This document shows, piece after piece, positions 15,918 through 32,805 of a stretch of 64,000 nucleotides of DNA (position 1 is the first letter of the stretch; each line of letters starts with the position of its first letter). Location: contig CAZLNP010000001.1 of NCBI GenBank assembly GCA_964561085.1, positions 75,335 to 139,334 of the forward strand, read 5' to 3'. The notes under the pieces are model-generated. The model saw only the letters and a list, made by a program, of their open reading frames with translations. It searched no databases and was not told the DNA's origin. This DNA comes from an uncultured Candidatus Saccharibacteria bacterium. Lineage in GTDB: Bacteria > Patescibacteriota > Doudnabacteria > UBA920. Position numbers and translations under genes: made by a program.

Positions 15918-15992
15918 GGCGCTATCGTCTAACGGTTAGGACAGACGGTTTTCATCCGTCAAATCGGAGTTCGATTCTCCGTAGCGCTACCA
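15918..15992 (+). tRNA. tRNA-Glu (anticodon TTC), CCA encoded
   Basis: 7-bp acceptor GGCGCTA/TAGCGCT (G1-U72), D-arm GTCT AACGGTTAGG AC, anticodon stem GACGG/CCGTC with loop TTTTCAT, T-arm CGGAG TTCGATT CTCCG, discriminator A then CCA. Confidence 0.85.
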
Positions 15993-17452
15993 CCTAACAT
16001 TTTATCCCTTTTGGAGATAGGCAAACATTCTTTTTTCCAATTGGTTATTACATTTTTATCACTTAGAGAAAAGTTTTCCACTAAACTTTTCACAAGACGG
16101 CGTCGGGATTCTTCCGACGCTGTTTTGTATGCAATGGTTGGGCTTTTAAGCAGTTTTCCAAGGTTTTCCATTTTCAGCATCGATTCAGCATTTTCAGACT
16201 GTACGCCATTTAATTGTTCAGTATATTCAATTTTTTTGTTTAACAATTTTGACTTCATGGATTGATAATCTTCGCTACTGATACTTTTGTCCAAAAATCG
16301 ATCCATTATATCGTCAAGCTGTTTCTCTACTTTATGAATTTCAAATATCCATTTAGCAGTAAGCTCCCCCTGTTGGCTTTTCAAGTCTTCCCTTAACTGT
16401 CCGATTGCTTTCAAAAACATTACTACTTCTTCATCCGAAAATTCAATACCCTTTAGTTCTTCAAAAAACTGTTCATCTACAAGTTCTTCTAACAAATTAT
16501 ATTTATGTTCTGCGCTGCGGCAGTTGTAGTACTTATAATAAACATTTCTATGTACTTTAGTTGAAGAAATACATCTTAATGGTCTATCGCAGGTAGGACA
16601 ATTAAGCATTCCTTGAAATACATACAACCGTTTTCTTTTATGCTTAAAGCTCTTCTTGTCTAACACTTCCTGAACTTTATCAAATAAAGATTTAGTAATG
16701 ATCGGTTGATGAATACCTTTGAAATCTCCTTTATTAGTCCACCGTACGATTCCGTAGTAAAATGGGTTTCTAAACATTTTATAAAGTGTTTTGTGTTTTA
16801 CCAAACCACCGTCATTATTCCTTAACCCCATTTCTTTTAACTTATCCTGTAAAGGTATAATCCCATACAAACCAGTAGCAAACATTTCGAATGCTTGTTT
16901 TACAAGTCTACTTTGAACAGGGTCAGGTTCTTTGAAACCTTTTTTAGAATCTAAATAACCGATTGGAGCTCTTGATGGAAAAAGTCCTTGTTCTAACATT
17001 CTATCAAATGCTGTATTTACTTTAACCCGCAATCTTTGGCTATAGACTGTTGCCTGCCCCCATAAATCATAAATTCTTGAAAGGTCATCGTCTGATTGAG
17101 TTGTGAGATTTTCAGCAGCAAAGTGAAAGTGATAGCCTTGTTCAATAAGTTTGTAAAAATTTCCAATATCTTGGTAATTCCTTGACGATCTGTCCACGGT
17201 AGCAAAGCAAATTCCAGCTAACTTTTCTTTCTTTAATCTTTGTATTAACATGCCAAACAACTTTCTCCCAGGACGAAAGGAAGATTCTACCCCCTCAAAG
17301 AAGTCAACTATTTCTAACCCTCTCTGTTTTGCATATAGTTCTATTTGTTTCTTTTGAATTTCTGGACTCCAGTTTGTTGCTTGGTCTTTTGAACTGACCC
17401 GTACATAAGCTAAGAATTTATTATTAGATAATTTTTTCATGTTGTCCTTCAT
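15959..17452 (-). CDS. Large serine recombinase (resolvase catalytic domain + recombinase domain + zinc ribbon + coiled coil)
   Basis: AYVRVSSKDQ catalytic serine motif near N-terminus, CPTCDRPLRC...C zinc ribbon, 497 aa; C-terminal codons overlap the tRNA-Glu 3' half. Confidence 0.9.
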   Translation of the reverse strand: MKDNMKKLSNNKFLAYVRVSSKDQATNWSPEIQKKQIELYAKQRGLEIVDFFEGVESSFRPGRKLFGMLIQRLKKEKLAGICFATVDRSSRNYQDIGNFYKLIEQGYHFHFAAENLTTQSDDDLSRIYDLWGQATVYSQRLRVKVNTAFDRMLEQGLFPSRAPIGYLDSKKGFKEPDPVQSRLVKQAFEMFATGLYGIIPLQDKLKEMGLRNNDGGLVKHKTLYKMFRNPFYYGIVRWTNKGDFKGIHQPIITKSLFDKVQEVLDKKSFKHKRKRLYVFQGMLNCPTCDRPLRCISSTKVHRNVYYKYYNCRSAEHKYNLLEELVDEQFFEELKGIEFSDEEVVMFLKAIGQLREDLKSQQGELTAKWIFEIHKVEKQLDDIMDRFLDKSISSEDYQSMKSKLLNKKIEYTEQLNGVQSENAESMLKMENLGKLLKSPTIAYKTASEESRRRLVKSLVENFSLSDKNVITNWKKECLPISKRDKMLGGSATENRTPI

Positions 17453-18176
17453 ATATGTTTCCTTTATATGATATTTTATTTTTATAAATATCGTTAGTTA
17501 ATATTTTTTTAATTGTTGACGGCCACCACCTGTTACCTCCACGCTTTGTTGGTATGCTTCGCAAATTTAGGTATGCAGCAATTTTAGTAAGATTCATTCT
17601 CTTATAGCGTTTTAAGTGAAAGATTTTTCTTACAATATCTGCCTCTGCTTGATTTGTTATCAACTGTCCGTCTTTGCAGTCGTATCCGTAAATTTCTCCT
17701 CCATGCCACCTCCCCTTAGCTGCAGCCGAAGCGCGTCCGTTGGTCAGTCGCATTGTAATCATGGCTCTTTCGAATTCACTAAAAGCACCTATAATTTGCC
17801 TAAACAGTTTACGAGTTGCATCATTACTACCTAAGTCTGGTTCAGTTAGTGAGATTAGCTGTTTATTTAGTTTTATAAACTCTCTTATTAGTCCTTCCTG
17901 GATATAGAGGTCACGGGCTAATCTCGTCAGTGACAAAATTACAACTGCTTTTACTTCGCTATTAACTTCTAAATACTGCATCATTTGTGCCAGCGCTGGC
18001 CTATGTTCCAAACCGCCACTTACACCATCGTCTTTAAACCATTCAACTATTTCTATACCGTTCTTTTTTGCATAATTTGATATTGATTCAACTTGTAATT
18101 CAATGTTGTCATTTTCCGCTTGTAGTGCAGTTGATACTCTGCAATATGCTATCGCTTGCATTTTCGTTCCTTCCAT
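17424..18176 (-). CDS. Serine recombinase, short form (resolvase domain + partial recombinase domain, no zinc ribbon)
   Basis: AIAYCRVSTALQ catalytic motif; 250 aa; 3' end overlaps the start of the 497-aa recombinase by 29 nt. Confidence 0.8.
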   Translation of the reverse strand: MEGTKMQAIAYCRVSTALQAENDNIELQVESISNYAKKNGIEIVEWFKDDGVSGGLEHRPALAQMMQYLEVNSEVKAVVILSLTRLARDLYIQEGLIREFIKLNKQLISLTEPDLGSNDATRKLFRQIIGAFSEFERAMITMRLTNGRASAAAKGRWHGGEIYGYDCKDGQLITNQAEADIVRKIFHLKRYKRMNLTKIAAYLNLRSIPTKRGGNRWWPSTIKKILTNDIYKNKISYKGNIYEGQHEKII

Positions 18177-18472
18177 ATCTGATTACTAACTTTTGCGAAT
18201 TCTGACCGAGCGAACTTTATCCCCTTTAACAACGAAAACGCTTTCGCGTAATCTGCGTCTAGTATTGCCCTAATTCTGTCCTGTTCCATCTGCCTTAATT
18301 TTTGTGAAGTACCTTTTAGCCACTCGAGCCGTTCTTCACAATTAGAGAATTTCATGTTACTCCAAATATAAAACCACCAGAGAATGAACTGCCAATTGTT
18401 ACGACACAACAACAGTTTCCCTGGTGGTTTAATTAAACTATACCAAATAAAAATTTGGCGTTCAATATCCAT
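18149..18472 (-). CDS. hypothetical small protein (likely starts at internal MKFSNCEER...)
   Basis: ORF from track upstream of the recombinase pair; N-terminal part of the track ORF is tryptophan-rich and implausible. Confidence 0.3.
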   Translation of the reverse strand: MDIERQIFIWYSLIKPPGKLLLCRNNWQFILWWFYIWSNMKFSNCEERLEWLKGTSQKLRQMEQDRIRAILDADYAKAFSLLKGIKFARSEFAKVSNQIWKERKCKR

Positions 18473-18609
18473 TGTTGTGTCGTATATAAATAGTAATCAC
18501 TATAGATGGCAAAGTACAATCTAGTCCGCAACTAGCCACAAAAGTATTCCCCTGTATACTCTTTATTAAATCCTCCTAAAATGGTGTCTATGGTGTATAT
18601 GCTGTCAGG

Positions 18610-20190
18610 CTAAAATGGTATGTCAGATTCATTTAGTGTATCCAAGGCCGCTTCGTCTGAATCTTCCATGACACCAGAAACAGCATTGACACCACTCTCG
18701 TAAATCTTCGTAAATGTAATCAGTCGTGCGCCGTCCTTATCGCGAGAAACTTTGATTCCGAGCGCCATCAGGTTTGTTGCGACAACTTGCAGTCTACGCC
18801 ATAGCCAATTCGGTGTTTTTGGAAATTCTCTCTGTCTTGTGTCTTGTTTTAGCTTTATTGCCAGTTCTTGAAGCACTAATAGCAAGTCAGTTGGAGTAGC
18901 TTGATAGTGCGTTTTGTTTTCCATGAATGCAATAACAACTTGCGCCACAGGAGAGTCATCAATCGCTTCAGCATTTTGTCTGATTAGGTTTTGAGTTAAC
19001 GCATCTATAAATTCTTCTGCCGTGTGTCCAATCGCAATACTGATAGCACAGCCCCACCGCACAAAATCTGCCATACGGAAGTTGCTTATTTGTTCTGGCA
19101 GTTCCATTCCCGGGTATACTTTAATGGATTTTTGTACTGCTCCAATTATTGCGCCTAAGAGCTGCGGTCGTGCTTGTTCAAACTCTGCCATTAACACACC
19201 TTCTTCTTTATAGTTTTGAGGTCTTTCTAGTTCAATAATTAGTGAACGTTCCAACAAATCAGGTTTACTAACCACAAGATTAATTCCGTTCATGGCAACG
19301 ACACGGCGGAAGCTGTAAATAATATCATCGTCATCTGAATAGAGTTCTCGCTTTGACATACCTTCGCCAGTCACGGTTCTGCATAATAGGTCTGAAAATT
19401 CAGGTTTTATAGGTGATAGATTATCAAGCGGTAAGAAATAATGATGGCTGGCTAACTGCACATACTCTCTGCTGTCGCCATGTGCGGTTAAAGTTTCCAT
19501 TATTGATGGGTCAATTAGCCCACGGAGCAGTTTGAACAAAGTAGTTTTTCTTGACCCTTGCGGTCCGTGAACAACTAATATCGGGTGCGGGAAGTTAGGC
19601 AACACAGACGCTACGAGCCATACAAGCAGTAATAATTTTTGACGTGGTTCTTTCGGAGTAGGAATGAAGTCAAATACTTTTTCTAACTCTGCTCCTGGTA
19701 TAGGTGCAACCTGCAGGCGCTGATGTCCGAATCTGTAAAACAGAATTGGTGCAGGGTCTAGTATTTTCCACTCATCTTTATTTATCAGTACCGCACGACC
19801 ATCACCTAAATCGTAAATTATACCGTTATCAGTTTCAGCAATTCTTACATGTAGCTTTATTTCTTCGCTGTCATGCGTTGCGTGTCCTTCTAGCGTTCTA
19901 ACTGCTGTTTCTATAGTGCCAGACGACACGGCCTTGCCTAATTCATCCCAACCGAGATGCGACAACCATGACTTGAATCCACGCGACCTCAGCTTTAGAG
20001 TCTTATGTCCATTCTCCTCTACAGCTATAAAGCCGTTATCAAACTGGTCATGAAATAGTTTAACGTTTCTGTTCAGTACCAGTTCAACAAGCTGTTCGGT
20101 AAGATTCTTTTCACTATCTGATTCAACTATAGATTCAGCTACAGAATCTTGGGTTTCTTTTTCTATAATTTCGTTTTCTTTGTCTGTCAT
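18610..20190 (-). CDS. Phage/plasmid primase-associated helicase (D5/P4-type P-loop NTPase)
   Basis: Walker A VHGPQGSRKTT about 190 aa from N-terminus, acidic C-terminus; gene order immediately after a primase zinc-finger protein. Confidence 0.6.
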   Translation of the reverse strand: MTDKENEIIEKETQDSVAESIVESDSEKNLTEQLVELVLNRNVKLFHDQFDNGFIAVEENGHKTLKLRSRGFKSWLSHLGWDELGKAVSSGTIETAVRTLEGHATHDSEEIKLHVRIAETDNGIIYDLGDGRAVLINKDEWKILDPAPILFYRFGHQRLQVAPIPGAELEKVFDFIPTPKEPRQKLLLLVWLVASVLPNFPHPILVVHGPQGSRKTTLFKLLRGLIDPSIMETLTAHGDSREYVQLASHHYFLPLDNLSPIKPEFSDLLCRTVTGEGMSKRELYSDDDDIIYSFRRVVAMNGINLVVSKPDLLERSLIIELERPQNYKEEGVLMAEFEQARPQLLGAIIGAVQKSIKVYPGMELPEQISNFRMADFVRWGCAISIAIGHTAEEFIDALTQNLIRQNAEAIDDSPVAQVVIAFMENKTHYQATPTDLLLVLQELAIKLKQDTRQREFPKTPNWLWRRLQVVATNLMALGIKVSRDKDGARLITFTKIYESGVNAVSGVMEDSDEAALDTLNESDIPF

Positions 20191-20193
20191 ATT

Positions 20194-20817
20194 TTATAGT
20201 CCTAGTAAGTACTTGACGGCTTCGGGGAAAGAATAGCCGTGAAGTAACATTATGAATTTAATTGAGTTGCCCCCTTCTTGGCAGCCGAAACACCAACAAG
20301 AATTTGTTTGTGAGTAAACTGTGAATGACGGGCGTTTGTCTTCGTGGAATGGGCATAGCCCTGTGAGATTGTTTCCACTACGCCTTAGTCTGCCGTCGTA
20401 CAAATCAGCTATTGGAATTTGAGTGGCCATTTCTATTTGCTCATCTGTCAATCGTCCTTTAGGCTTCTTGCCACTGGCGACATAAACTTGCCGTCTCAGT
20501 CTTGCTATATGCTTAATTACTTCAAGTAGTTGTAGCCCGTCAGTGTGCTTAACCAATTCTCTGCAAAACCAGTATTCAAAGTCAGTTTTTGTACTGTCAT
20601 ATAATCGTTCCAGTTTCCGCAATATTGATTTCTTGACGGCTTTCTTTACGATTTGCCATTCCTTAATCTTGCTTGGCAGTACAGACTTGATTTCAGGGAA
20701 TATCGATAACAACTCAGCATCTGTATATTTGCGCTTTGAATCCCTATGTTCAGATTCCAGTTCTTCATACATGAGCCACTGCTCATAATCTTTATCGACA
20801 TGACTAGCTTGTGTCAT
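20194..20817 (-). CDS. DnaG-type primase zinc-finger (CHC2) domain protein
   Basis: C-terminal CPFHEDKRPSFTVY...CWCFGCQEGGNSIKF matches the zf-CHC2 consensus; 3-nt gap to the helicase gene. Confidence 0.6.
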   Translation of the reverse strand: MTQASHVDKDYEQWLMYEELESEHRDSKRKYTDAELLSIFPEIKSVLPSKIKEWQIVKKAVKKSILRKLERLYDSTKTDFEYWFCRELVKHTDGLQLLEVIKHIARLRRQVYVASGKKPKGRLTDEQIEMATQIPIADLYDGRLRRSGNNLTGLCPFHEDKRPSFTVYSQTNSCWCFGCQEGGNSIKFIMLLHGYSFPEAVKYLLGL

Positions 20818-21168
20818 CAGTATCTCCTTTCGACTGTTTACAATCGTTATCGAAAATATGAATGACAGCTTCTAAGTAATCTCCGTACTTGTCTAGCACT
20901 TCTTCTATATTCATTTGTTTTCTTTCTGCATAAATGCAAAAAGAGCTTTCTCAAGCAGACAAACAAAACACCCGTTCGGTGATCGTTTATCAACATAAGA
21001 AAGCCCTTCTAGTTTTTACGTATATTCTAGAAGCAGGTGTCGCACCCCCTATACTCAACGGAGCGGTAGGATAGATATACCTCGCTTATCAATGCAGTAC
21101 TGTTTAAAAAGAACTCTTTACTTAATTACTAGGTAATTATAGCAGATTCAAACAACCATGTCAAAAAA

Positions 21169-21501
21169 TTATTTAATAATTTCAAAATCTCTATTGCATT
21201 TAGGGTTAGAGCAGGTGTAGAACTCCGTCAAATTCTTAGAAACAAACCGCATCCCCTGTTTTAAAAGGCCACTCTCATGAAATGGACAATGATAACTTTT
21301 TAGTTCAATTTCAGTATTTAAAGATAAGCTAATTTTCTTGTAAGCAGACTGCTCATCAAAAATTTGTACGGTGAACTCTAAACCACATTTCTCACAAACT
21401 AAATCTAACGCACTATTATCAGTAACTTTATTAAAACGCTTCCGACCCATAGGGTTGCTACATTTTATGCAATAAATTTTCTCTGCTATTTGATTACTCA
21501 T
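21169..21501 (-). CDS. hypothetical double zinc-ribbon protein (110 aa)
   Basis: Four CxxC pairs: CIKC...CEKC and CPFH...CSNPKC. Confidence 0.4.
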   Translation of the reverse strand: MSNQIAEKIYCIKCSNPMGRKRFNKVTDNSALDLVCEKCGLEFTVQIFDEQSAYKKISLSLNTEIELKSYHCPFHESGLLKQGMRFVSKNLTEFYTCSNPKCNRDFEIIK

Positions 21502-21793
21502 ATATATATTGTAGTATTAGTTAACTTCTCTAGACGTGATTTCTTACATTCGGTTAGTACCGAGTGTCCAAGACCCTAAAGCAAGTGACTATAATATAAC
21601 AAAATAACCCCTCTCAGAATAGGCATATAAATACCTATAACCAATACAAAAAGTGTTCTCTGAGGCCATTCTAGGACTTCATGGAATGCTTCAAAGTGCC
21701 TTGTTTATAGTACTTTTAGCTGTAATGGTATATAATTAACCTACAATTCTGCCTAAACCTTCAAGTAATTGAAGGCATGGCGCAATACTAAAC

Positions 21794-21922
21794 CCACTAC
21801 TACATGAAGGCGGCTATCCGTCTTGCTTACCATGTAGTAGTGGTTATCCTTCCGAAAGGTTGGATAAGGCAAGCGGGTAGCCCCTTTTGTTTTTTAAAAT
21901 AATTAAATCCACTACTACAATG
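21794..21922 (+). repeat. iteron-like element: three copies of CCACTACTACA(A)TG (two forming a 13-bp inverted repeat) plus TTATCC/GGATAA hairpin and T-tract
   Basis: Copies at 21794-21806, 21831-21843 (inverted) and 21909-21922 (overlapping the start codon of the downstream ORF). Confidence 0.5.
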
Positions 21923-22477
21923 AAAAAATGCCCATACTGCGCTGAAGAAATGCAGGACGAAGCAGTCGTTTGCAAGCACTGCAAAAAAGATATTCCCAAA
22001 CAAGACAAGCACTTACCAACGAATGTACCCAACTTTAATCCCACATTAAATAATAGAGTTTTAATTGCTATAGTAATTATTATTGCATTGTTATGCCTTT
22101 ACGCCATAATGCGAATGAAGCAAGGCAATACTTCCGTGCCGGCAACCCCGGCAGCAACTACAAATTCAATAAGCAACCAGTCGCTAGAACACAAACTGGC
22201 TTCTATACATTCTAACGACACAGCTCCACCGCAAGAACTGGTTAATCAGTTTAAAGACCAGTTATATAAACTAAGTTTAGTATGTCCGAAAAATACCGAA
22301 CAACAACTAAGCGATTATATCGTGAAAGCACATCAACTAATCACTGAAAAGCGTCCTGTATTTACACTTCTTGAAGTTAGTCAGGGATTTTATACTAGTA
22401 TTCCAAAAACAAATACCACTACAGACTGCGTTGATTACATGACAATATACATGGCTTTAGTCCTAAAAGGTTACTAA
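21920..22477 (+). CDS. hypothetical zinc-ribbon + single-TM membrane protein
   Basis: [23 protein letters not shown] then hydrophobic [17 protein letters not shown]; start re-set from the track TTG to ATG 21920. Confidence 0.45.
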
Positions 22478-23010
22478 ACCACTAAAGTAGTATTTTTCTG
22501 CTGATTGTATTCAGCCAACTGTGCCTTCAAATTTTTAACCACTTTTCGTTTTTCTTCAATAGACACATTTGCGTTCAGGTTATGATTATGCGTAATTATA
22601 CTAGCTTCGCCAAACTCGGTACGCTGAATGTCACAGATTACTGAAAATGCACTAGCTATTGTAGCGAGTTCTTTGGGTGCTAGAATATTTTCACTTTTAG
22701 CATACTCGCCAATCATATCTAGTAAATTGCTAGTCATTTCAATACGCTTGTGTTTAGCTGTGGTCATCTGCTCCATAGAGGAAACCACCACGTCCGCATA
22801 GTTCTGTTTTTCGTCTTGGTATACTTGCGCCTTTTCTAGTTCTTGCTTGATTGATTTTTTAAACTTGCTCCAGTTGTGGCGGGAAGCATAAAGTTGCAAC
22901 GCACTGACGGCAATTTGATTTGCATAATCTTTATGAATGTCTATTAAGGATTCACCTTTAATGTAGCGTTCAAATATTTTAGAGTATTCTGCTTTAGGAA
23001 TTCGTGCCAT
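22474..23010 (-). CDS. hypothetical protein (start re-set to MARIPKAEY...), last gene of five-gene cassette
   Basis: ORF from track; overlaps stop of downstream ORF by 4 nt; N-terminal region looks helix-turn-helix-like. Confidence 0.4.
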
Positions 23011-23067
23011 AAATTTATAACTTACTATATATCTAAAATATATCAACCTCTGCAGTAAGTACACATC

Positions 23068-23676
23068 TTATTCTATGCCATGTTTATTCTTCCAATCCTT
23101 GAAAAGCTGCTCTGTTCGCTGATGTTGCTCATCTGTTAGTTCCCCTACAATTCCAGACTGTTCTTCTAGGTCAATATTTTTAGAAAGTGTTATATAATCT
23201 TTAACCATTTTTGCCTTAGTTTCTAAATCAAACAGACTATCACCGTTATAAGATAATTCTTTAATTCTGCCGTGGCTTAAACTATCTCTTATGCTTTTTA
23301 TTTTCCATAAGAATTTAGTATGTGCGGTTTTGCCCCTGACTTTCTCTACAAAGAAGATTCTATCGCCGAACGAAATTTCATTCGGTTTATACGCAGGGTG
23401 AGTAGGATCAACTTTCTCCATTTTCAAACCTATATTAGTTCTGATAAAATTGTCCAAATCTTCTGTTGAATTACCCAACATTTCATTAACTACATTAGCC
23501 GCTTGGGTTAAGGTGGAATTTAAATCCTGTTCAACGGTATGACAAAACCAAAAAGCAAATTCAACAGTTAATCTTTCTTCTTTTGAAATCTTAAGCATCG
23601 TATCAGGAATTAAGTTAGCAAAATCCTGACTGCTGTATTGCTTCAATAAATTTTCTAAATCAATTTCTTCAGTCAT
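23068..23676 (-). CDS. HEPN-like protein (Rx4H motif)
   Basis: KIKSIRDSLSHGRIKE contains R-x4-H; 202 aa; start overlaps the upstream DUF4238-like gene by 8 nt. Confidence 0.4.
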   Translation of the reverse strand: MTEEIDLENLLKQYSSQDFANLIPDTMLKISKEERLTVEFAFWFCHTVEQDLNSTLTQAANVVNEMLGNSTEDLDNFIRTNIGLKMEKVDPTHPAYKPNEISFGDRIFFVEKVRGKTAHTKFLWKIKSIRDSLSHGRIKELSYNGDSLFDLETKAKMVKDYITLSKNIDLEEQSGIVGELTDEQHQRTEQLFKDWKNKHGIE

Positions 23677-24547
23677 GCTTAATTTCCTTTGCTAATTTTT
23701 CTAACACTTCTTTATCATTATGGAATAGGTATCTATCACTACGTGATGCTAGTGCTAAATTGATTTCATCTACACTCTTTCCACTAATGGTCGCTATTAA
23801 ATTTTCTTCGTGATCATCTAGCATTAACAAGCATACCTTTGAAGTTATAGGAAATACCTTTATTACTCCTCTAACCAGAAACCCCATAGCGGGCGGCTTC
23901 TTCCCTTCAATAAAAGTCATTACAAACGGCGAACTTGTAGTGATAAAAGAATAATTTTCTGGAGCAAAGCAGTATCGCCATTCTAGGTGCAAAAAATTAG
24001 CTGCGAATTGCACACCTGAATTAACAACCATTTCAAGGTGCTGGTTCTTAAACTTTGTATCCGAATCAAGCAGCTCAGTTAAATTGTCATGTAGTTCCCT
24101 CGCAGAGATACCTGGTGTATCCGATGGCAAGAAATCTGGAGTCTTAACTTCATGTTTTTCCTCCGGAATATCCCATTCTTTCATAATTTCCATGAGTTGA
24201 TTCATTGAATCTCTATTCTGATTCTCATAACTAGGTACTCGCACAAATTGATAAGCAATAAATAGCGCTAATTTATCTTTTTCCAATTGTGTCGGGCGTT
24301 CTTTGTTCTCAATTTTCTCTATTATTGGTTTGATATCGCTTTCCATCTGAGCAAAGTATCTTTCAATGTCATTATTTTTCTCACCTTCATAAACCAAAGA
24401 GTAGTAATTACTAATAACCGCCACGTTTTCAAGTGACGGTGAATAGTATTTATTTTCTAACTTATCGTAGACCCAAACCTTTTCGTTATCGGCAAAACCT
24501 CTTAAATAGGTTTGAGGTACATAGTGGTGTCGTTTAGGTTCGCTCAT
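23669..24547 (-). CDS. DUF4238-like protein
   Basis: N-terminal RHHYVPQTYLRGF and C-terminal FITTSSPFVM match what I recall of the DUF4238 family profile; 292 aa, the typical size. Confidence 0.45.
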   Translation of the reverse strand: MSEPKRHHYVPQTYLRGFADNEKVWVYDKLENKYYSPSLENVAVISNYYSLVYEGEKNNDIERYFAQMESDIKPIIEKIENKERPTQLEKDKLALFIAYQFVRVPSYENQNRDSMNQLMEIMKEWDIPEEKHEVKTPDFLPSDTPGISARELHDNLTELLDSDTKFKNQHLEMVVNSGVQFAANFLHLEWRYCFAPENYSFITTSSPFVMTFIEGKKPPAMGFLVRGVIKVFPITSKVCLLMLDDHEENLIATISGKSVDEINLALASRSDRYLFHNDKEVLEKLAKEIKHD

Positions 24548-24548
24548 T

Positions 24549-25328
24549 TTATATTTTTATCATACGAAAAATTATAAACTCCGGTATTTTATTTAGTCTA
24601 ATATAATCTCTTTCCGAGATTTGCTTCATTCCTTCCAAAGGCTTAGGTTCTAAAAAACGCTCTACCAGAAACCCCGCATTATTTGCTTCATTAATCATCT
24701 CACTAATAGGCTTATGCCAAGTAGTAACATCGGCAAGTGCACCTAAACCGTCAGCCAACTTTCTACGGTCCATATAATTACCAATAATTTCAACGCTCTT
24801 AGGCTGCTTTTGTTTAATAATAGCCAACTGCCTAATCTGCTGGTTATCAGTATCCTCTGTAACGACCATTGCAGTTCTTACTGGATGAGCGCAGGAAAAT
24901 TGAAAATAAGAGTTAGGCTTCAGCACACGATAGGCTTCTTGAAAAACTTTAGTCCAATCTTCGATGTAATGTATTGCGAGGCTCGAATAAACAAAATCAA
25001 AACTATTATCCGGAAAAATTAATTGTTCCATGTTCATAACCTCAAACTTACAGTCAGTATAACTGGCTTCAGCAATTTTAATTAACTCAGGAGATATATC
25101 TATACCCACTGATTCATTTGCTCCTTGTTGTTTCAAGTAAATGCTATCTTCCCCACTCCCACACCCGAGACTTAGTACTCGCTTACCTTTTAAGTCAGGC
25201 AACAAGCTATACATAGCCGGCTTTTCGTAATACGCATGGTATATAGAATCATTTGGGTTGCGCACATGAGCTGTATAACCTACGGCATTATCGTTGTACC
25301 AATTTTTAGTTTTATCGTCAGTAGACAT
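24549..25328 (-). CDS. Class I SAM-dependent methyltransferase (not a DNA N6/C5 MTase by motifs)
   Basis: VLSLGCGSGED motif I, acidic residue after beta2, 259 aa; no DPPY/NPPF or PC motifs. Confidence 0.75.
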   Translation of the reverse strand: MSTDDKTKNWYNDNAVGYTAHVRNPNDSIYHAYYEKPAMYSLLPDLKGKRVLSLGCGSGEDSIYLKQQGANESVGIDISPELIKIAEASYTDCKFEVMNMEQLIFPDNSFDFVYSSLAIHYIEDWTKVFQEAYRVLKPNSYFQFSCAHPVRTAMVVTEDTDNQQIRQLAIIKQKQPKSVEIIGNYMDRRKLADGLGALADVTTWHKPISEMINEANNAGFLVERFLEPKPLEGMKQISERDYIRLNKIPEFIIFRMIKI

Positions 25329-25380
25329 ATTAATTTATTAATAATGTAGATTTAAATTATTTGTCAGTTAATTATCACTC

Positions 25381-26208
25381 TTAAAATAATTCAAACTTGG
25401 TAATTAGATCCTTTGGTATATAAAACTCTGATGAGAATCGTTTGCGAATGCTTTTTGCTTTGGACTTATTCCGTTCAATTATAAGTTTGATTTTCTTCTT
25501 TTCTGTATCGATAGACTGTAAATAAGATTCTAGCGTAGGCATGTCTGGACTTTTTTTATAGCACTCCTCTATTTCAATCGCAAATTTAGGTGAAAAACTA
25601 TTAGTAATAATGTAGTCGCCTATAATGGTCTTATAATTATTAGTGGGAAATAATTTTTTACCAGTTGCTACTTGAACAAACTCATTTTGAATAGTCCTTT
25701 TAACTGCTTTGTCCTGTTCTGAATCTGAACCGATAAGACAAAAAGCCAAAGTTTCATTGCTTTTGAAAGCAGCATAATAATCCAGTTCACTTTTTTTACG
25801 ATTTTTGCCTAAGTAAATCCATATATAATGGAAATTATAGAAAAATACTGGGTTATTTTTCTGCGACTCATGTAGCGGTAAAACCACATTTTTCCATTGC
25901 AAATCGTTGTGAGTCAATGAAGTAAGATGATATGTAATACTTTCTCCTTCTGAAAGATTAATCGTTTTGCCGGTATGCATTTGGGAGCTTACTTTCATTC
26001 GCCATTCCTCATTAAGAAAATATACCTTCCCTCTTTTTATTACAGATTCTGAAGCAACTAGCGAGCGCAAAGCTACATATACTGCTTGAATAGTATAGGT
26101 AGAAGATTCGCTTTTTAATTGTTCCATTAATTCAGTAACGGTTAGCTCAGAACTAATTAAAAGCCTAATTAGTTTATCTTCTAACGTTTCCTTTTGAGTG
26201 AATATCAT
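25381..26208 (-). CDS. hypothetical protein with N-terminal winged-helix-like region
   Basis: ORF from track; first gene of tightly packed minus-strand cassette. Confidence 0.35.
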   Translation of the reverse strand: MIFTQKETLEDKLIRLLISSELTVTELMEQLKSESSTYTIQAVYVALRSLVASESVIKRGKVYFLNEEWRMKVSSQMHTGKTINLSEGESITYHLTSLTHNDLQWKNVVLPLHESQKNNPVFFYNFHYIWIYLGKNRKKSELDYYAAFKSNETLAFCLIGSDSEQDKAVKRTIQNEFVQVATGKKLFPTNNYKTIIGDYIITNSFSPKFAIEIEECYKKSPDMPTLESYLQSIDTEKKKIKLIIERNKSKAKSIRKRFSSEFYIPKDLITKFELF

Positions 26209-26277
26209 GATAATAGTATAACTTAAAAGGCTCAGTTTTTAAAATATTCTTTTAAAAACCTATTATTTCACCACATT

Positions 26278-27003
26278 TTGGTTGAAAAGTCAATAGTTTT
26301 GAGCTATACTGCGCTCATGATAAATAACGAAGTCACAACTCAATACAATAATTTCCACACTGACTACAGTATTCAACTATCCGAACAGGATGAAATTAGC
26401 AATGCTATGTTCCATAAAGCAATCGATTTTGAATTAACTGATAAAAAGCTTTTGGACATAGGCTGTGGGGATGGAAGCGCATTAAAAATGCTAAGTGGTA
26501 AAGGCGCTAGTGTCTATGGAATAGACCCCTCTACGGAATTCTTAAAAAAGGCGGAAATTAATAATCCTACTGGGATATTCAGACAGGGTGTTGGAGAAGC
26601 ACTCCCCTTTGAGGCTAATTACTTCGATGTAGTAGTCTCGAAATGGGCAATGCAAACATCTCCTGATGTGCCTGGAATATTGTCCGAAGCAGCTCGAGTT
26701 CTTAAGCCTGGTGGTATGTTCGTATTTTTAACCAAGCATCCTATTCAACAGTGGCTTGAAAAAATTAGAGATTACGGGCATGGATCTAATTACTACTCAC
26801 AGCAAATTGTTACCTCTAACATCTATGAGGGTACTATTAAGCTAAAAGAACCAACTCATACAATTGGGGAATATCTTAACGCAGACTTCTTTAAGAACTT
26901 TGAGGTTCTTGATTACAAAGAAGAGACTCAATTCCCTGCTTCTGAACAATTCAATAATGATATTTACCCCACCTTCCTTTTGATTAAGGCTCGTAAGAAA
27001 TAA
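26278..27003 (+). CDS. Class I SAM-dependent methyltransferase (UbiE/COQ5-like)
   Basis: LLDIGCGDGS motif I and VLKPGGMFVF; true start may be the ATG near 26316 (MINNEV). Confidence 0.75.
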   Translation: MVEKSIVLSYTALMINNEVTTQYNNFHTDYSIQLSEQDEISNAMFHKAIDFELTDKKLLDIGCGDGSALKMLSGKGASVYGIDPSTEFLKKAEINNPTGIFRQGVGEALPFEANYFDVVVSKWAMQTSPDVPGILSEAARVLKPGGMFVFLTKHPIQQWLEKIRDYGHGSNYYSQQIVTSNIYEGTIKLKEPTHTIGEYLNADFFKNFEVLDYKEETQFPASEQFNNDIYPTFLLIKARKK

Positions 27004-27007
27004 TCAC

Positions 27008-27541
27008 ATGAAAATTGCAATATTTAGTTCGTGGCTTCCAGAAGTCAATGAGTATAACCAAAAACTTGCGATACAAATTGCTGAATATTTAGCCGATAAA
27101 GATATCACGGTTGTCACTGGTGGATGTAGCGGTATTCCCGCAGCAGTCGTTGAAGCAGCGCACAATAAAGGAGTAAAAACTATCGGATACTTCCCACATA
27201 AAAGTAAGGAAGAATACCATGACCGCCAGCACGAAAAAAATATTCATGCTTTAGACTATTATTCAACTGCTCATTTTATTTCCGGTTTTACAGCTCGTAG
27301 CTTAGAAATGATCAAAAATGTAGATGCGGCTATAGTCTTGAACGGTAGGATTGGCACCCTATCAGAATTTGGAATTGCAATCGAGGAAGGTTTACCATTA
27401 GCAGTGATTGAGGGCACTGGCGGTATTACTGATGAATTACGAAATCTTGTAAAAGTAGCTCAAAAAGAATTCCCTAATAACGAGGTAATATTCGAACAAG
27501 ACTACAAAAAAGCTATTGATATGCTAATATCAAACCATTAA
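27008..27541 (+). CDS. LOG/TIGR00725-like Rossmann-fold nucleotide-binding protein (SLOG superfamily)
   Basis: VVTGGCSGIPAAVVEAA glycine-rich motif and ...GRIGTLSEF... typical of LOG-like phosphoribohydrolase fold. Confidence 0.6.
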   Translation: MKIAIFSSWLPEVNEYNQKLAIQIAEYLADKDITVVTGGCSGIPAAVVEAAHNKGVKTIGYFPHKSKEEYHDRQHEKNIHALDYYSTAHFISGFTARSLEMIKNVDAAIVLNGRIGTLSEFGIAIEEGLPLAVIEGTGGITDELRNLVKVAQKEFPNNEVIFEQDYKKAIDMLISNH

Positions 27542-27544
27542 TAC

Positions 27545-27576
27545 AAAACGGTCCAATTCAGGACCGTTTTTGTTTT
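27545..27576. terminator. bidirectional intrinsic terminator (LOG-like / HAD convergent pair)
   Basis: AAAACGGTCC-AATTCA-GGACCGTTTT perfect hairpin then TTGTTTT; overlaps last codons of the HAD gene. Confidence 0.6.
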
Positions 27577-28241
27577 GATTCAAAAATTTCAGTTAACTCT
27601 GCCAAAGAAGATATAAACTTGTCTGGCTCCGCACTATCCGGAATAGGAATGATTTCACGTTTATACAATATCGTGCTCAAGCCTAACAATTTGGCTTGAA
27701 GTAATCCCCTATACCAATTATCATCTATTAAAACGCTTTCAGATGGCAATGCACCCGAATCTTTCAATATTTCTAAATAAAAATTCGGGTCGGGTTTTTG
27801 CAGTCCAATGTGTCCTGACATTTTTTGATGGGAAAAATATTGCAACAAACCAGCATCTTCTAATACATTACCAGCTTTAACATTTTGGTTGGCCATAATT
27901 CCCAAGTTAAAAGATTTGCTCAATCCTGAAAGCACCTCCATCGCTTCAGGACGAACTTTCGATAAACCATAATAATCTACATTACATTCGTTGTTGTATA
28001 CTAACTCAGCTTCTTCTTTAAGTTTAGAGTCCTTAAATAGATAATGTAAGGCATTAATCCTAACGCTCCCAGGTTGCTGAGATGCAAACAGCCAAGCTTC
28101 GTAGATATTTGCCATAGTTATATTAGGCAAATACCGCTGTGCTACATTGAACAAAATTTCTTGTCGTAATGTCTCTGGCTTCGTATCATCTAGGATAACG
28201 CCTCCCATATCAAAGAATAGCCATTTGATGTTTTCTTTCAT
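27558..28241 (-). CDS. HAD-superfamily hydrolase
   Basis: FDMGGVI (motif I DxG), ...LIDDN (motif IV) and GHIGLQKPD region. Confidence 0.75.
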   Translation of the reverse strand: MKENIKWLFFDMGGVILDDTKPETLRQEILFNVAQRYLPNITMANIYEAWLFASQQPGSVRINALHYLFKDSKLKEEAELVYNNECNVDYYGLSKVRPEAMEVLSGLSKSFNLGIMANQNVKAGNVLEDAGLLQYFSHQKMSGHIGLQKPDPNFYLEILKDSGALPSESVLIDDNWYRGLLQAKLLGLSTILYKREIIPIPDSAEPDKFISSLAELTEIFESKQKRS

Positions 28242-28319
28242 GCAATTAGTATACCATCTTCAATTAAAGGTATGACACCAGAGACACCATTTTTGTCATA
28301 ATATATATTCTATTAACCA

Positions 28320-28420
28320 ATCCACATGGAATCACCAGAGGTCATCGTGGTAACTCTAGGATAATCTTAGAACTCACCACTATGATTGAGTTTTGGATTT
28401 TACCGAAAAGTTTTGAAAAC
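28320..28420. repeat. intergenic repeat element, copy A (shares three blocks with copy B at 30530-30760)
   Basis: CCACATGGAATCACC / GGTCATCGTGGTAACTCTAGGA / GAGTTTTGGATTTTACCGAAAAGTTTTGAAAAC recur, partly permuted, at 30532-30557, 30686-30720 and 30720-30737. Confidence 0.5.
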
Positions 28421-29184
28421 TATATCTTCTCCCAAATACCTTTAAACATCTCGCGTAGGTTTTGCGCCATAACTGCATCGTGAGTCTCAACCATATAATG
28501 CGGGTGTTGATTTGTAACTATAAACATTACATAATCTCCCAAGACCACATGCGTTGCGGTAAAGTCTACAGTTTTATCCCAATATTTTGTTTGACGTCTA
28601 TCGTCAGATACTCTATTCGCAACTTCTTTTTCAACTTGTTTGTTATTTGTAAATACTCTTAAACCAAAATTTTCCGGAAAGATTTCCCAATGATACTCAA
28701 CCCAATCTTTATATTCTTCCAATAGAGAAGTGTCCTGGAATCCCCACCAATTTTTATCATCTAATTTCTTAGCACTTTCTATCCAAACTGGTAATTGCTT
28801 TTTAAGAAAATCAGCTAGCTGAGGTTCATCTATAAAACGAATTTTAGGCACTGAATACTGCTTAGACTTAGGTAACGCCTGGAGTTCTAAGATTGCCTGT
28901 TCTATGGCAGTCTTTTTTTGTTCTAATTCCTGCTCTTGAGATTTATATAGAGTACGAAGCTCTTCAGGTGGCAAAGCAGTGTAATAAGTAGTAGTTCCCC
29001 CTAGGTCTTCTTGAATAACCCCCTTTTTTACAAGTTCCTTTGAAACACCATATACAGTGGTTCTATTGATTTTAGAAATACGAGACACATCAGCGGCTGA
29101 TAGTTTGCCATTCTCTTGAATACATAGATATACCGAGATTTCTTTATCAGTGAAGCCTAATTGTTGTAAATATTCATTTAACAT
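28420..29184 (-). CDS. TrmB-family transcriptional regulator
   Basis: N-terminal LGFTDKEISVYLCIQENGKLSAADVSRISKINRTTVYGVSKELVKKGVI winged-HTH characteristic of TrmB, plus C-terminal sensing domain. Confidence 0.75.
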   Translation of the reverse strand: MLNEYLQQLGFTDKEISVYLCIQENGKLSAADVSRISKINRTTVYGVSKELVKKGVIQEDLGGTTTYYTALPPEELRTLYKSQEQELEQKKTAIEQAILELQALPKSKQYSVPKIRFIDEPQLADFLKKQLPVWIESAKKLDDKNWWGFQDTSLLEEYKDWVEYHWEIFPENFGLRVFTNNKQVEKEVANRVSDDRRQTKYWDKTVDFTATHVVLGDYVMFIVTNQHPHYMVETHDAVMAQNLREMFKGIWEKI

Positions 29185-29284
29185 AGCTTAATTATAGCAT
29201 GTTGTTGAAGATAAATCAACAGTTATTTAATGGCTTATTTACGATATTATTTAGATTAATTTCTACATTCTTTTGAAGTAGTAT

Positions 29285-29313
29285 TGACAAAAGAGCAAAA
29301 ATCTGTTATACTG
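29285..29313 (+). promoter_or_regulatory. consensus sigma70 promoter TTGACA-17-TATACT for the PLP-fold gene
   Basis: TTGACAaaagagcaaaaatctgtTATACT followed by GAGGAGG Shine-Dalgarno and ATG at 29364. Confidence 0.6.
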
Positions 29314-29363
29314 GTAAGTCAAAAATAAAAACTATTAAAAAACAAGTCTTGAGGAGGACAATA

Positions 29364-30422
29364 ATGAATACACTATCGAACAAAAGAAAGGCTCTCTATG
29401 CTTCAATCTTGGGTTCTGTAAAGAACTCCCCTGTCGAGTCTATCGAGTTTGAGGGTAACCATTACCACTTCAAGCTTGATTACAAACTTCCCTACGGGGA
29501 ATGCCATTATGCCAGAGTGTTTTCTCAGCTAATATATCTCAAGGAATGCTTAGGCATTATCAAACCTGGAGATACATTACTAGAAACAACTTCCGGTTCT
29601 GGCGGACGAGGTGCAGCTGCTGTAGCAACTGCTCTTGGATACCGGATTATAATCGGCCTTCCCGCCGGTGGAGAAAAAGCTCGTGAAGATGCCATCAAGA
29701 AAGCGGGTGGAGAACTACTTCTTACGCCGTCTGAAGCTTACGTAAATGGTTTCCCGGAATTCATCAAAAAGTATCTTGTTGAAAACCGTGGAACCAGATA
29801 TATCAATCATGTTATGGGCGATATATCTGGCAGAGGGATTTCCATTAATCATGCGGCGATTAATGCCTTCCGCCCATTTGTGTACGAAGTATTGGAAGCT
29901 GGTATTAAACCAGACGTTGTGATCAGTCCTCTTGGCAACGGGACTACAACGCTTCCAATGGTTGAGGGGTTCAAATCTCTCTTTGCGAAAACAGAAGTTG
30001 TAGGTTTTGAGTCTGTTGCTGCCGGTTATGCACACAGAAAATACTATGCTGGCAAGTACGAAGACATCTTCGGAATAAACCCAGATGTGTTTACTCGGCA
30101 TGACCTGCCGGGCTCATCACCTTCTCACACAACTTTTCCAATGCCCGCTCTAGATGCAGCAATACCGCAACTAGATGGTGTCGGATTGGTGACAAGTGAT
30201 TACACAGATCGACTGTTCAGTGAAACCGTTGGCTTCAAGCCTTCGGATAAAAGTAACTGGGTCGTGAAGTGGGATGACTTTCATCATTCTGCGCTAACGG
30301 AATTTGGCCGGACTGGCAGAGCCGGTTTCGCACTCGCCGTCACATTGGCACGTAAAAAAGAAGTGTCTGGCAAACATTTTCTTGTACCAATATTTGACGC
30401 ATCCTGGCATTACGATAGCTGA
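29364..30422 (+). CDS. PLP-fold type II (CysK/tryptophan-synthase-beta-like) protein, apparently lacking the Schiff-base lysine
   Basis: IIKPGDTLLETTSGSGGRGAA matches the cysteine-synthase [21 protein letters not shown] Gly-loop. The position of the SIKDR lysine reads GECHYAR. Start re-set from the track TTG to ATG 29364. Confidence 0.65.
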   Translation: MNTLSNKRKALYASILGSVKNSPVESIEFEGNHYHFKLDYKLPYGECHYARVFSQLIYLKECLGIIKPGDTLLETTSGSGGRGAAAVATALGYRIIIGLPAGGEKAREDAIKKAGGELLLTPSEAYVNGFPEFIKKYLVENRGTRYINHVMGDISGRGISINHAAINAFRPFVYEVLEAGIKPDVVISPLGNGTTTLPMVEGFKSLFAKTEVVGFESVAAGYAHRKYYAGKYEDIFGINPDVFTRHDLPGSSPSHTTFPMPALDAAIPQLDGVGLVTSDYTDRLFSETVGFKPSDKSNWVVKWDDFHHSALTEFGRTGRAGFALAVTLARKKEVSGKHFLVPIFDASWHYDS

Positions 30423-30529
30423 AAAGCGCTCGAACTGATTATCTTTACGATAGTCAGTTCTTTTTTATTCTAAGAACATACTTTTACATGAATTATATGA
30501 ATATATTACTTGTACATTTCTATGACTCT

Positions 30530-30760
30530 CGGGGTCATCTAGTGAACTCTAGGAGGTGTCTGAGTTTCCATATAAACTTCTCTTACTAAAGCCAAATAGT
30601 TTTTCCACCTGTACCTATAGGACCTACCACGCAAATTCAAAACACCCTCACGGGTGTTTTTGCGTAGGTTTTCATTGGCTATGCGTGAGTTTTCAGTTTG
30701 ACCTAAAAGTTTTGAAAACCACATGGTATCCATCGTGATTTGAAAACTTTATTAGCTAGG
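30530..30760. repeat. intergenic composite repeat, copy B (blocks shared with copy A and copy C) including a hairpin AAAACACCC-TCAC-GGGTGTTTT
   Basis: 30579-30629 TCTCTTACTA..TTTTCCACCTGTACCTATAGGACCTACCA is ~90% identical to 31682-31731. Other blocks match copy A. Track ORFs 30539..30733 and 30556..30738 lie entirely inside the repeat. Confidence 0.55.
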
Positions 30761-30782
30761 GTAAAGTGAGTATAATGAATAT

Positions 30783-31667
30783 ATGAGTGAATTTAATAAA
30801 AACATACCAGGTACAGAGTTCAGTAATATCCCAGCACAGAGGGAAAATATAGAAAAACCATCTCCGGAATCCATTGCTTTAGAAAAACTAAAAAGCTCAG
30901 GCGAGATATTGTCCTATTACAAACAAAGCCGATCTACTTATATCGACATGAATGGTTGGCAAACTGATTTATCTGACGAAGAGGTTATTAACCATTTTAA
31001 GGAATCCCCTACTTTATTCCATAGCACATTTTTAACTAAAGAAAATAAAATAGAGCGGATAGGCCAGCAAGGATTAACAACCGAATCCTTCCGCGAACGC
31101 GCTGGTATTAAACCAGAACCACCCCTTGCAGAGGTGGTACAAGAAGCGAATGAGTATACAGAAGACGACTTTTGGAATGACATGATGGAAATGGAATATG
31201 ATATGGATAGTGCTTTCAAAAAAAGTCCTGAATACAATAAAAAGTATATATCCTTTTCATACTTACCTTGGTGGAATGAGCGTGAGATTATTGAAGATGC
31301 CCCGAATTCCGAATTTGACTTTGATGATAATGGCAAGATTAAGGATTTGAAAATTAGCATAGCACTTAATCCAAAATCTGGCCGTAGAATAATCGAAGAA
31401 AATCTAGAAAGCTTGAAAGATAATGATAGCGAGATAGCAAAGTTAGGCCGATTAACTTCCTTCTGCGAAGTCCTCGAACCAATCCGAACGGCACCCAGAG
31501 ATTTTGCTGCAATATTCCTATTAATCAAAGGTTACGAAGATATTGACGATCCAAAGAAAAAAGAATTATTTGTAAAATTTATTGAAAGATTAGGAGGCAA
31601 AAGTCAGTTGCCTATCTTTGATTACTACGGTAATTTGCTTTGGCCCCACCAGAATAAAGCTAACTAA
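30783..31667 (+). CDS. hypothetical acidic protein (294 aa) flanked by direct repeat copies B and C
   Basis: ORF from track; no motif assigned. Confidence 0.45.
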   Translation: MSEFNKNIPGTEFSNIPAQRENIEKPSPESIALEKLKSSGEILSYYKQSRSTYIDMNGWQTDLSDEEVINHFKESPTLFHSTFLTKENKIERIGQQGLTTESFRERAGIKPEPPLAEVVQEANEYTEDDFWNDMMEMEYDMDSAFKKSPEYNKKYISFSYLPWWNEREIIEDAPNSEFDFDDNGKIKDLKISIALNPKSGRRIIEENLESLKDNDSEIAKLGRLTSFCEVLEPIRTAPRDFAAIFLLIKGYEDIDDPKKKELFVKFIERLGGKSQLPIFDYYGNLLWPHQNKAN

Positions 31668-31681
31668 TGATATAATAAATC

Positions 31682-31770
31682 TCTCTTACTAGCGCCATAA
31701 AGGTTTTCCACCTGTATCTATAGGACCTACCAACAGTCCGCAGTATCGAGAGACCCAAATGGGTCTTTTA
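31682..31770. repeat. intergenic repeat copy C plus terminator-like hairpin AGACCC-AAAT-GGGTCT-TTT
   Basis: See copy B; the repeat is followed about 20 nt later by a stem-loop and T-run. Confidence 0.5.
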
Positions 31771-31786
31771 AAATAATTTATTATAT

Positions 31787-32596: not shown

Positions 32597-32714
32597 TCAT
32601 ATTTGCATCGATTTTGCCCTAAGACTCGAATGCATCAAAACGACTGTGTGAAATCTCCTAGAAATCCTTTATAGCTCCCCTAGTTGATCAGTTCTAGACG
32701 CGGTATCACTACCA

Positions 32715-32752: not shown

Positions 32753-32805
32753 TGCCATGCTTGCTTATTGAAAGCAGTTCAATCCAAACTACTCCTAAAT
32801 AATTC

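Follow-up and report, generated by a model that had tools for sequence, protein, structure and literature searches.

Three related intergenic repeats (A, B, and C) in a 64-kb stretch of a probable Saccharibacteria genome, hereafter the window, belong to a 15.7-kb island anchored at a tRNA-Glu gene 12 kb upstream. We conclude that these repeats are most probably scars left at junctions where a large serine recombinase (LSR) integrated elements site-specifically at the 3' end of this tRNA gene. Direct support comes from insertion polymorphism, exact breakpoints, the shuffling of junction arms, the coding origin of the repeated block, and the association of the block with tRNA-Glu. The LSR, perhaps together with a small serine recombinase, is likely to catalyze the events, and the gene cassettes that the repeats delimit are presumed to be still active.

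A composite island at tRNA-Glu

Three sister-strain loci (L022, L023, and L025) carried the genes that flank the island at 95-99% identity, and in all three tRNA-Glu directly abutted the sequence that begins at window position 31733. Window 9816-15992 aligned with L022 3-6179 and window 31727-40208 with L022 6174-14664 at ~95% identity (blastn). The two alignments overlapped by 6 nt, CTACCA, as did those to L023 and L025. Because tRNA-Glu is joined to 31733 in the sister strains, window 15993..31732 (15,740 bp), which they lack, was inserted at the six terminal bases of tRNA-Glu. The target, tRNA-Glu(TTC), lies at 15918..15992 on the plus strand (ARAGORN; Rfam 60.6 bits) and forms the left arm of the chromosomal attachment site attB, with the crossover core CTACCA at 15987-15992. 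Its last 66 nt were identical to the tRNA at the L022 empty site, and the insertion left the tRNA unaltered. The chromosomal right arm of attB (B', 31733..31770, plus strand) is contiguous with tRNA-Glu in L022, L023, and L025 and contains a terminator-like hairpin (31751-31766) with a T-run. Since this hairpin is present at the empty site, the hairpin that follows C is the native terminator-like hairpin of tRNA-Glu. In L015 the B' arm is conserved behind the final block, and in L040 behind tRNA-Glu. The insertion in the window is precise relative to the empty attB and shares with it a core of just 6 nt, as in LSR integrative elements.

A sequence-only reading of the window had described a block of ~50 bp common to B and C, and three blocks common to A and B in permuted order. 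The B/C block is real: B 30572-30629 and C 31675-31732 form a 58-nt direct repeat at 86% identity, which grows with gaps to ~95 nt at 75% identity (blastn E 1e-13), and a 29-mer of the repeat had 2 matches in the window vs 0 in 100 shuffles. A and B do share two matches, of 53 nt (A 28380-28432 with B 30679-30731; 77%, blastn E 1e-6) and 22 nt (A 28340-28361 with B 30533-30554; 82%), but these are colinear rather than permuted, and in a gapped alignment A equals B minus two internal stretches of ~35 and ~49 nt. Only the 8-mer CCACATGG is out of order; the window contains it three times, and we treated it as a chance match. Nor does the palindrome CCTATAGG characterize the family, as other copies carry TCTCGAGA, GTCTCGAC, or non-palindromic sequence. 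Folding recovered the predicted terminator-like hairpins as stable plus-strand structures with T-runs 3' of B (z = -4.1) and of C (z = -3.1), and the repeats bracket the TrmB/PLP gene pair and the 294-aa open reading frame (ORF) as described. Within the 64-kb window, blastn (word size 7), pattern searches, and an nhmmer profile built from 25 block copies gave no copies beyond A, B, and C. The profile found B at E 3.6e-15 and C at E 6.5e-17, with the next best match at 0.026. Related copies occurred in other Saccharibacteria and metagenome loci, and strains without the bracketed genes, which had been suggested as a check, are those with the empty site (L022, L023, and L025).

The 294-aa gene lies in a unit that has been found intact in other surroundings. 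An identical 294-aa protein was encoded on three other contigs with differing contexts, and the unit as a whole (unit 3, window 30630-31732) was 100% identical across three left contexts and two right contexts, with 1103/1103 identical positions in both L001 and L002. In L001, McrBC and DNA-methylase genes and then a different block precede the cassette. The 140 nt to the left of the unit were identical to L001 at 115/140 positions, and the rise from 82% to 100% identity falls exactly at the CTACCA core. In L002, the cassette comes directly after the tRNA-Glu 3' end (...GTAGCGCTACCA|CGCAAATTC...), with its 30630-30733 arm adjoining the tRNA. To the right of block C the window has the chromosomal arm vs different sequence in L001, L002, and L011, and homology with L001, L002, and L003 stops at 31733. 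The L003 contig, 1,111 nt long, covers exactly 30623-31733, an extent that fits branching of the assembly graph at both sides of the unit. The segment 30630-31732 has the structure of a cis-mobilizable element (CIME), flanked by att-type sites with no recombination or transfer genes, and it was presumably mobilized in trans. The neighboring unit in L001 (881-3458) encodes McrBC and a DNA cytosine methylase, and this cargo looks defense-related.

Scanning metagenomes recovered 14 loci. Most distinct block copies (23/26) ended in CTACCA, like tRNA-Glu, and left and right arms were combined in many ways: one left-end (P') arm followed three different left partners, block C preceded two right partners, and one block type preceded three different right arms. 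Blocks were 1-6 kb from tRNA-Glu(TTC) in L028, L030, L034, and L040, with the same polarity as in the window. L030 had three blocks and no LSR, and a 3' remnant was all that was left of the LSR in L034. Six blocks in 8 kb, all in one orientation, were present in L015, which comes from a metagenome-assembled genome (MAG) of Ca. Saccharibacteria; they delimit units of 0.7-2 kb with one or two genes. L021 had two full LSR elements in tandem at tRNA-Ala(TGC) (positions 2051-2128, 10755-10844, and 19534-19607), and its blocks ended in CCACCA, the tRNA-Ala 3' end. Thus the core co-varies with the target tRNA, CCACCA at tRNA-Ala vs CTACCA at tRNA-Glu. Tandem units at the 3' end of a single gene, bounded by integration-site repeats and including units without a recombinase, make up composite islands in the window (three units), L015, L030, and L021. 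A perfect-stem hairpin with a T-run lay within 50 nt 3' of the junction in 16/31 distinct junctions vs 0.45% of shuffles, and this hairpin covaries in L015 and L027 (ACACCC/GGGTGT vs ACGCCC/GGGCGT). An exact-pattern scan of genome contigs returned 13 matches, approximately the number that we estimated for chance. Those in L011 and L015 were the only real ones, and both loci come from Ca. Saccharibacteria MAGs, on which the assignment of the host to Saccharibacteria is based. We attributed two matches on viral contigs to chance.

Unit 1 (15993 to ~28379) is the largest part of the island and holds the recombinase pair, a primase-like module, a LOOT RNA, and varied cargo. It also encodes two proteins without assignment, a primase-type zinc-finger protein, and HEPN-like, DUF4238, methyltransferase, SLOG, and HAD proteins. 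The HEPN(Apea)-like and DUF4238 proteins (window 23068-24547) are cargo that looks defense-related. Region A (28340..28432, plus strand) is the decayed junction between units 1 and 2, which kept the outer parts of both arms and lost the block core and hairpin. Its minus-strand remnant FSKLFGKIQNSII matches FSKLLGQTENSRI of B, and the block hidden Markov model (HMM) does not recognize it. As junction A has no core, unit 2 is now fused to unit 1. Unit 2 (~28380-30629) carries a TrmB-family regulator (28420-29184, minus strand; Pfam TrmB) and a CysK-like enzyme dependent on pyridoxal 5'-phosphate (PLP; 29364-30422, plus strand; Pfam PALP). NCBIfam gave only weak CysK-like matches to this enzyme, far under the cut-offs, and an exact-protein look-up returned no record. 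The unit closes with its right-end (P) arm (30490..30629, plus strand), which includes block B with the core CTACCA at 30624-30629 and is the arm that is 82% identical to its counterpart in L001, vs 100% to the right of it. Unit 3 (1,103 bp) begins with its P' arm (30630..30733, plus strand), made up of a hairpin and T-run (stem 30639-30660) and an LSR 3' coding remnant. The 294-aa cargo gene follows (30783..31667, plus strand), and its product had no match in Pfam, PHROGs, NCBIfam, or PDB sequences. Unit 3 ends in block C (31675..31732, plus strand; core CTACCA 31727-31732), which is the P arm of both unit 3 and the whole island.

Some sequences beside the arrays deserve mention. Window 32704-32750, 3' of a 269-aa gene just outside the island (31787-32596), has a junction-like layout, with CTACCA leading into A-rich sequence, a hairpin with a perfect 10-bp stem, and a T-run. 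The block HMM did not support an older fixed junction there, and the segment is probably a bidirectional terminator between convergent genes. The 269-aa protein and the product of a 195-aa cassette gene (L015 5331-5918) are both lipoprotein-like and have similar N-terminal regions, in which a signal peptide is followed by ...W.(K/T)Y.N..L..S..YP..., and related cargo may be fixed beside the array. Just past the distal end of the L015-type cassette array are retroelement-type genes (L042 482-1896, L015 7046-7804) for a bAvd accessory protein and a reverse transcriptase, typical of a diversity-generating retroelement.

Serine recombinases and the origin of the blocks

Recombinases. The LSR (497 aa; 15959..17452, minus strand) contained the Pfam domains Resolvase PF00239, Recombinase PF07508, and Zn_ribbon_recom PF13408 and the catalytic-serine motif VRVSS. 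The gene for a second serine recombinase (250 aa; 17424..18176, minus strand; Pfam Resolvase and partial Recombinase; catalytic motif CRVST) overlaps the start of the LSR gene, and a pair of 246 and 496 aa was kept beside tRNA-Glu in L019 and L020. An exact-protein look-up of the window LSR returned no record. Both window recombinases scored 37-108 bits against the NCBIfam CcrA/CcrB/CcrC equivalogs, with cut-offs of 700-900 bits, and no tyrosine recombinase or Phage_integrase domain was found among the island ORFs scanned. The LSR ORF enters tRNA-Glu and ends in ...KMLGG-SATENRTPI*, with the last ten codons and the stop read in reverse from the tRNA 3' end. We compared 85 LSR homologues, and the majority of those closer to it also ended in tRNA-encoded GSATENRTPI or GSATGNRTPI. 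Many homologues in the set P0008-P0091, including those of Flavobacterium, Geomonas, and several groups of the candidate phyla radiation (CPR), ended in tRNA-like reverse-strand peptides (GSATGNRTPIWRMKTACPNR, ..RDSNPR.., ..GFEPPTLRAEI), and others ended in a native tail resembling G.P...SRTF..L..K[LI]..[YF]F. These C-termini suggest a large LSR clade that integrates into tRNA genes with an ORF that crosses the junction.

Coding origin. B and C differ at eight positions, which in a single minus-strand frame amount to four synonymous and four conservative changes, and this frame reads GRSYRYRWK(N/T)(Y/F)(L/M)ALVRE(V/I)Y. Across 25 distinct copies, 53% of single-base codon differences were synonymous in that frame vs 10-42% in the other five, in a test that is biased by the gathering of copies through a protein motif. 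Despite that bias, codon-family switches among the copies (Ser TCT/AGT, Arg AGR/CGA) point to a coding origin and would be hard to explain otherwise. TGGAAAAC and the GGT beside the core were invariant even at third codon positions, which indicates that constraint acts at the DNA level too. The small ORF over B crosses the junction in the frame of the LSR (...NLRG-RSYRYRWK...). One LSR homologue, P0029, ended in a block-like tail GGAELLRWKTALAMVSQIY (...FGGAELLRWKTALAMVSQIYSALV); this is the inner LSR of L021, which takes its native-type tail from the block of the outer element. LSR ends come in two forms, the native tail ...GG-RSYRYRWKNYLALVREVY... vs the tRNA-encoded ...GG-SATENRTPI. The 64-aa ORF that spans the unit 2/unit 3 junction (30539..30733, minus strand) is pseudogene-like, with remnants of an LSR C-terminus and native tail, and its relatives are P0001 and P0003-P0006. 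The 73-aa P0006 and the L030 copy are a recognizable LSR C-terminus fused to the block. P0006 aligned to residues 461-493 of the LSR P0016 (E 2e-7) and P0003 to residues 458-506 of P0029 (E 9e-4). A profile search of 5.8 billion sequences with the small ORFs returned six small proteins and no full LSR because a tail of ~20 aa is too short for significance; the link to the LSR was found by reading the C-termini of LSR homologues. From the fusions and the P0029 tail it follows that the blocks are the native 3' end of the LSR gene, and that the ORFs inside the repeats, earlier dismissed as spurious, are LSR remnants rather than random.

The blocks also bear some likeness to the tRNA itself. The invariant GTTTTCCACCTGT of the block (30601-30617) resembles the anticodon arm of tRNA-Glu, GGTTTTCATCCGTC (15938-15951), and the tRNA-encoded peptide ...RMKT... 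resembles the block peptide ...RWKT.... Derivation of the P arm from the tRNA-Glu 3' half with a 15-nt deletion (GTTTTC..CC.GTC shared) is speculative, as the ~16/30 identities with a hand-placed gap were not significant.

LOOT RNA. A LOOT RNA (RF03000; 21750..21882, plus strand) scored 50.3 bits in Rfam vs a gathering score of 46.4 and, within unit 1, lies where the recombinase/primase-like module ends on its far side. L019 (963-1088), L021 (15331-15448), and L034 (15831-15958) each carried a LOOT RNA at the corresponding place and in the matching orientation. Its strand was always that of the target tRNA, and it lay at the far edge of the LSR module. Besides the LSR, this module comprises a ~500-aa protein, a primase-like protein, and, in some elements, a second recombinase. 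The LOOT RNA of L034 survives beside the LSR 3' remnant and is only ~330 nt away from tRNA-Glu. These RNAs may be encoded by the elements to serve their replication or control.

Integration mechanism and alternative explanations

We propose that the attachment site of the circular element sits inside the 3' end of the LSR gene. The P arm (blocks B and C) would encode the native C-terminal tail of the LSR (~30-40 aa) and end in CTACCA, and the P' arm would be the remaining LSR 3' end or its remnant, often with a terminator hairpin in cassettes without an LSR. Recombination with the CTACCA end of tRNA-Glu would leave the tRNA intact and bring the LSR gene beside it, such that the integrated LSR would end in a tRNA-encoded peptide and the P arm would land at the far end of the element. 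Further elements entering the same core would produce a tandem array with a P arm at every unit boundary, and units without a recombinase would retain both arms and be mobilized in trans. Loss of unit 3 would join block B to ACAGTCCGCAG, and loss of the full island would join tRNA-Glu to ACAGTCCGCAG.

Several observations weigh against this mechanism. The predicted circle junction of unit 3, in which the specific end of block C (...GTATCTATAGGACCTACCA) is joined to P' (CGCAAATTCAAAAC), did not occur in any of the loci retrieved. For the TrmB/PLP unit, independent mobility is unsupported: junction A on its left has decayed, we saw the TrmB gene in no context other than that of the window (L041 has the same context), and there was no sign that unit 2 moves alone. 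The bias of the codon test belongs here as well. The L015 and L030 arrays had no LSR in the DNA examined, and some arrays may be fossil. Typical serine-integrase att sites show some dyad symmetry, and in attB and four reconstructed attP sites we found symmetry at no more than 10/22 positions at any center, near the chance value of ~5.5. Canonical LSRs recombine only attP x attB, so entry at attL, attR, or attP-like junctions needs relaxed site choice. Relaxed site choice has been reported for Ccr recombinases, and we conjecture that a two-recombinase, Ccr-like asymmetric system could account for both the missing dyad symmetry and the relaxed sites.

Instead, the cassettes might be swapped through homologous recombination, for instance following natural transformation, with the blocks acting as portable homology arms. 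Blocks of 58-140 nt flank every unit, and no recombinase gene was near the L015 and L030 arrays, both of which such exchange would accommodate. We nevertheless consider it improbable. Identity between flanking blocks reaches only 75-86%, and no identical run exceeds 13 nt. Every breakpoint falls exactly at CTACCA, and the identity step from 82% to 100% lies at the core. Moreover, the left partner in L002 is a tRNA that shares only 6 nt, and the core becomes CCACCA in the tRNA-Ala elements.

A recombinase encoded elsewhere (tyrosine, Xer-like, or of another kind) could also act on CTACCA, with the LSR serving only as the integrase of unit 1 or having no relation to the repeats. The lack of dyad symmetry in the att sites and the arrays without a nearby LSR agree with this, and our inspection covered 64 kb of the genome. 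This explanation would leave the origin of the sites unaccounted for, as the blocks are LSR tail-coding sequence and the P' arms LSR 3' remnants. In addition, the LSR ORF runs across the tRNA junction in the frame that the small ORFs use, and the island ORFs scanned had no tyrosine recombinase domain. We therefore regard it as unlikely.

Duplicated plus-strand small RNA or tRNA-like genes with their own terminators are a still weaker candidate, which we judge very unlikely. They would agree with a terminator-like hairpin after each block, with the tRNA-like ...ACCA ends of the blocks, and with a TATAAT-like box just upstream of C. The TATAAA/T box is a codon pair for (I/V)-Y, though, and the hairpin after C is the native tRNA-Glu terminator of the empty site. 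Variation within the blocks tracks minus-strand codon positions, with Ser and Arg codon-family switches, and covariation was seen only in the terminator hairpins outside the blocks. No Rfam family at gathering thresholds and no ARAGORN tRNA or tmRNA call was found at the blocks. The related suggestion of shared terminator modules was only partly right: the hairpins are a regular feature 3' of junctions, as the comparison with shuffles shows.

Short intergenic repeats that bracket genes also recall miniature inverted-repeat transposable elements (MITEs) or integron attC sites, but the units lack terminal inverted repeats, the window has no dispersed copies, all copies share one orientation with those that have enough flank lying near a tRNA gene, and the blocks have no imperfect palindrome and the island ORFs scanned no IntI-type integrase, so this is scarcely credible. 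Integration by the LSR at the tRNA 3' end is the reading we retain, and the earlier suggestion of recombination sites delimiting cassettes is supported by the empty site in sister strains, the identical 294-aa unit in different contexts, and the combinatorial arms.

Related systems and implications

The closest analogues of the island are the Dehalococcoides ssrA islands and SCCmec composites. Composite islands of this kind are already known; uncommon here are an LSR that targets tRNA, a recombinase gene that contains the att site and has its tail swapped on integration, cassettes with just one or two genes, and the LOOT RNA. The ssrA islands lie in tandem downstream of the tRNA-like end of the tmRNA gene, bounded by a short direct repeat of that end, with a ~500-aa serine recombinase followed by a shorter one (DsiB/DsiA) by attL on the reverse strand, and some of their units have no integration module and were proposed to be cis-mobilizable (PMC3146451, McMurdie et al. 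2011). The window island resembles them in its recombinase pair by attL on the reverse strand (15959-17452 and 17424-18176) and in its tandem units, some without a recombinase. It differs in that its target is tRNA-Glu rather than tmRNA, and identity to the target is 6 bp, whereas the conserved repeat of 58-140 nt belongs to the element and codes for the tail of its recombinase. Units here are also as small as 0.7-1.1 kb with a single gene, and the host is a probable member of the Saccharibacteria.

SCCmec (staphylococcal cassette chromosome mec) and pseudo-SCC elements integrate at the 3' end of rlmH through CcrAB or CcrC and form composites that include units without recombinases. LSR-type integration into a conserved gene 3' end, two recombinase genes, and tandem composites with repeats of the integration site at their unit boundaries are shared with the window island. 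Unlike in SCCmec, the window recombinases are not Ccr orthologues, the target is a tRNA, and the repeats encode the recombinase tail rather than the end of the target gene. CIMEs were described for tyrosine-recombinase elements of Firmicutes. The 294-aa unit is like them, and like the accretion of integrative and conjugative or mobilizable elements, in being att-flanked, free of recombination and transfer genes, and in tandem with a recombinase-bearing element; it differs in that the system relies on a serine recombinase, and the island showed no conjugation genes.

Other systems share single features. The tycheposons of Prochlorococcus are cargo elements at few tRNA genes with integration and primase modules, in which successive integrations push older elements into the island and leave degenerate remnants, and a minority use an LSR (bioRxiv 10.1101/2020.12.28.424599). 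A tRNA target and a primase module are found in the window island too, but tycheposons mostly use tyrosine recombinases with partial tRNA copies, and the flanking repeat in the window is no tRNA fragment. For Mx8 IntP and SSV-type integrases, a passage in PMC4383910 citing Tojo et al. 1996 places attP inside the integrase gene, with integration altering the C-terminal end. Crossover within the integrase gene is common to both, although those integrases are tyrosine recombinases and here an LSR gains a replacement tail that is a reverse-strand tRNA reading. Integrons likewise have one-directional arrays of one- or two-gene cassettes with conserved recombination sites by a fixed platform. The window array differs from them in lacking IntI, an attC hairpin-type palindrome, and an attI or Pc platform, and its sites are coding remnants.

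Serine integrases have been stated as not known to target tRNA genes (PMC4383910, PMC7192596), and we found no description of this system in Saccharibacteria or Patescibacteria in the open-access literature. A tentative extension, which we hold to be possible and rather less probable than the integration mechanism itself, is that Saccharibacteria, and perhaps other CPR bacteria, have a serine-recombinase counterpart of the integron, with the CCA end of tRNA-Glu as a platform for the exchange of one- or two-gene cassettes, a tail-swap switch, and a large clade of tRNA-targeting LSRs. If so, every cassette would bring its own terminator for the tRNA. The native tail of ~30-40 aa would be swapped for a 10-aa tRNA-encoded peptide, which could switch the LSR between an integration-competent form and an excision-competent or inactive one. 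Serine integrases aimed at tRNA would then have been overlooked as a large group, namely the LSR clade whose C-termini read into many tRNA genes.

Integration at tRNA-Glu accounts for the variation among strains of a 15.7-kb region in a small genome, probably of Saccharibacteria, and identifies small "hypothetical" junction ORFs as recombinase remnants rather than genes. It also ties an orphan Rfam family, LOOT, to a specific kind of mobile element. The exact boundaries and the signature of a P arm that ends in the last six bases of the tRNA allow such cassettes to be found in metagenomes. Finally, the island points to an LSR clade aimed at tRNA 3' ends, whose short, well-defined sites could serve genome engineering.

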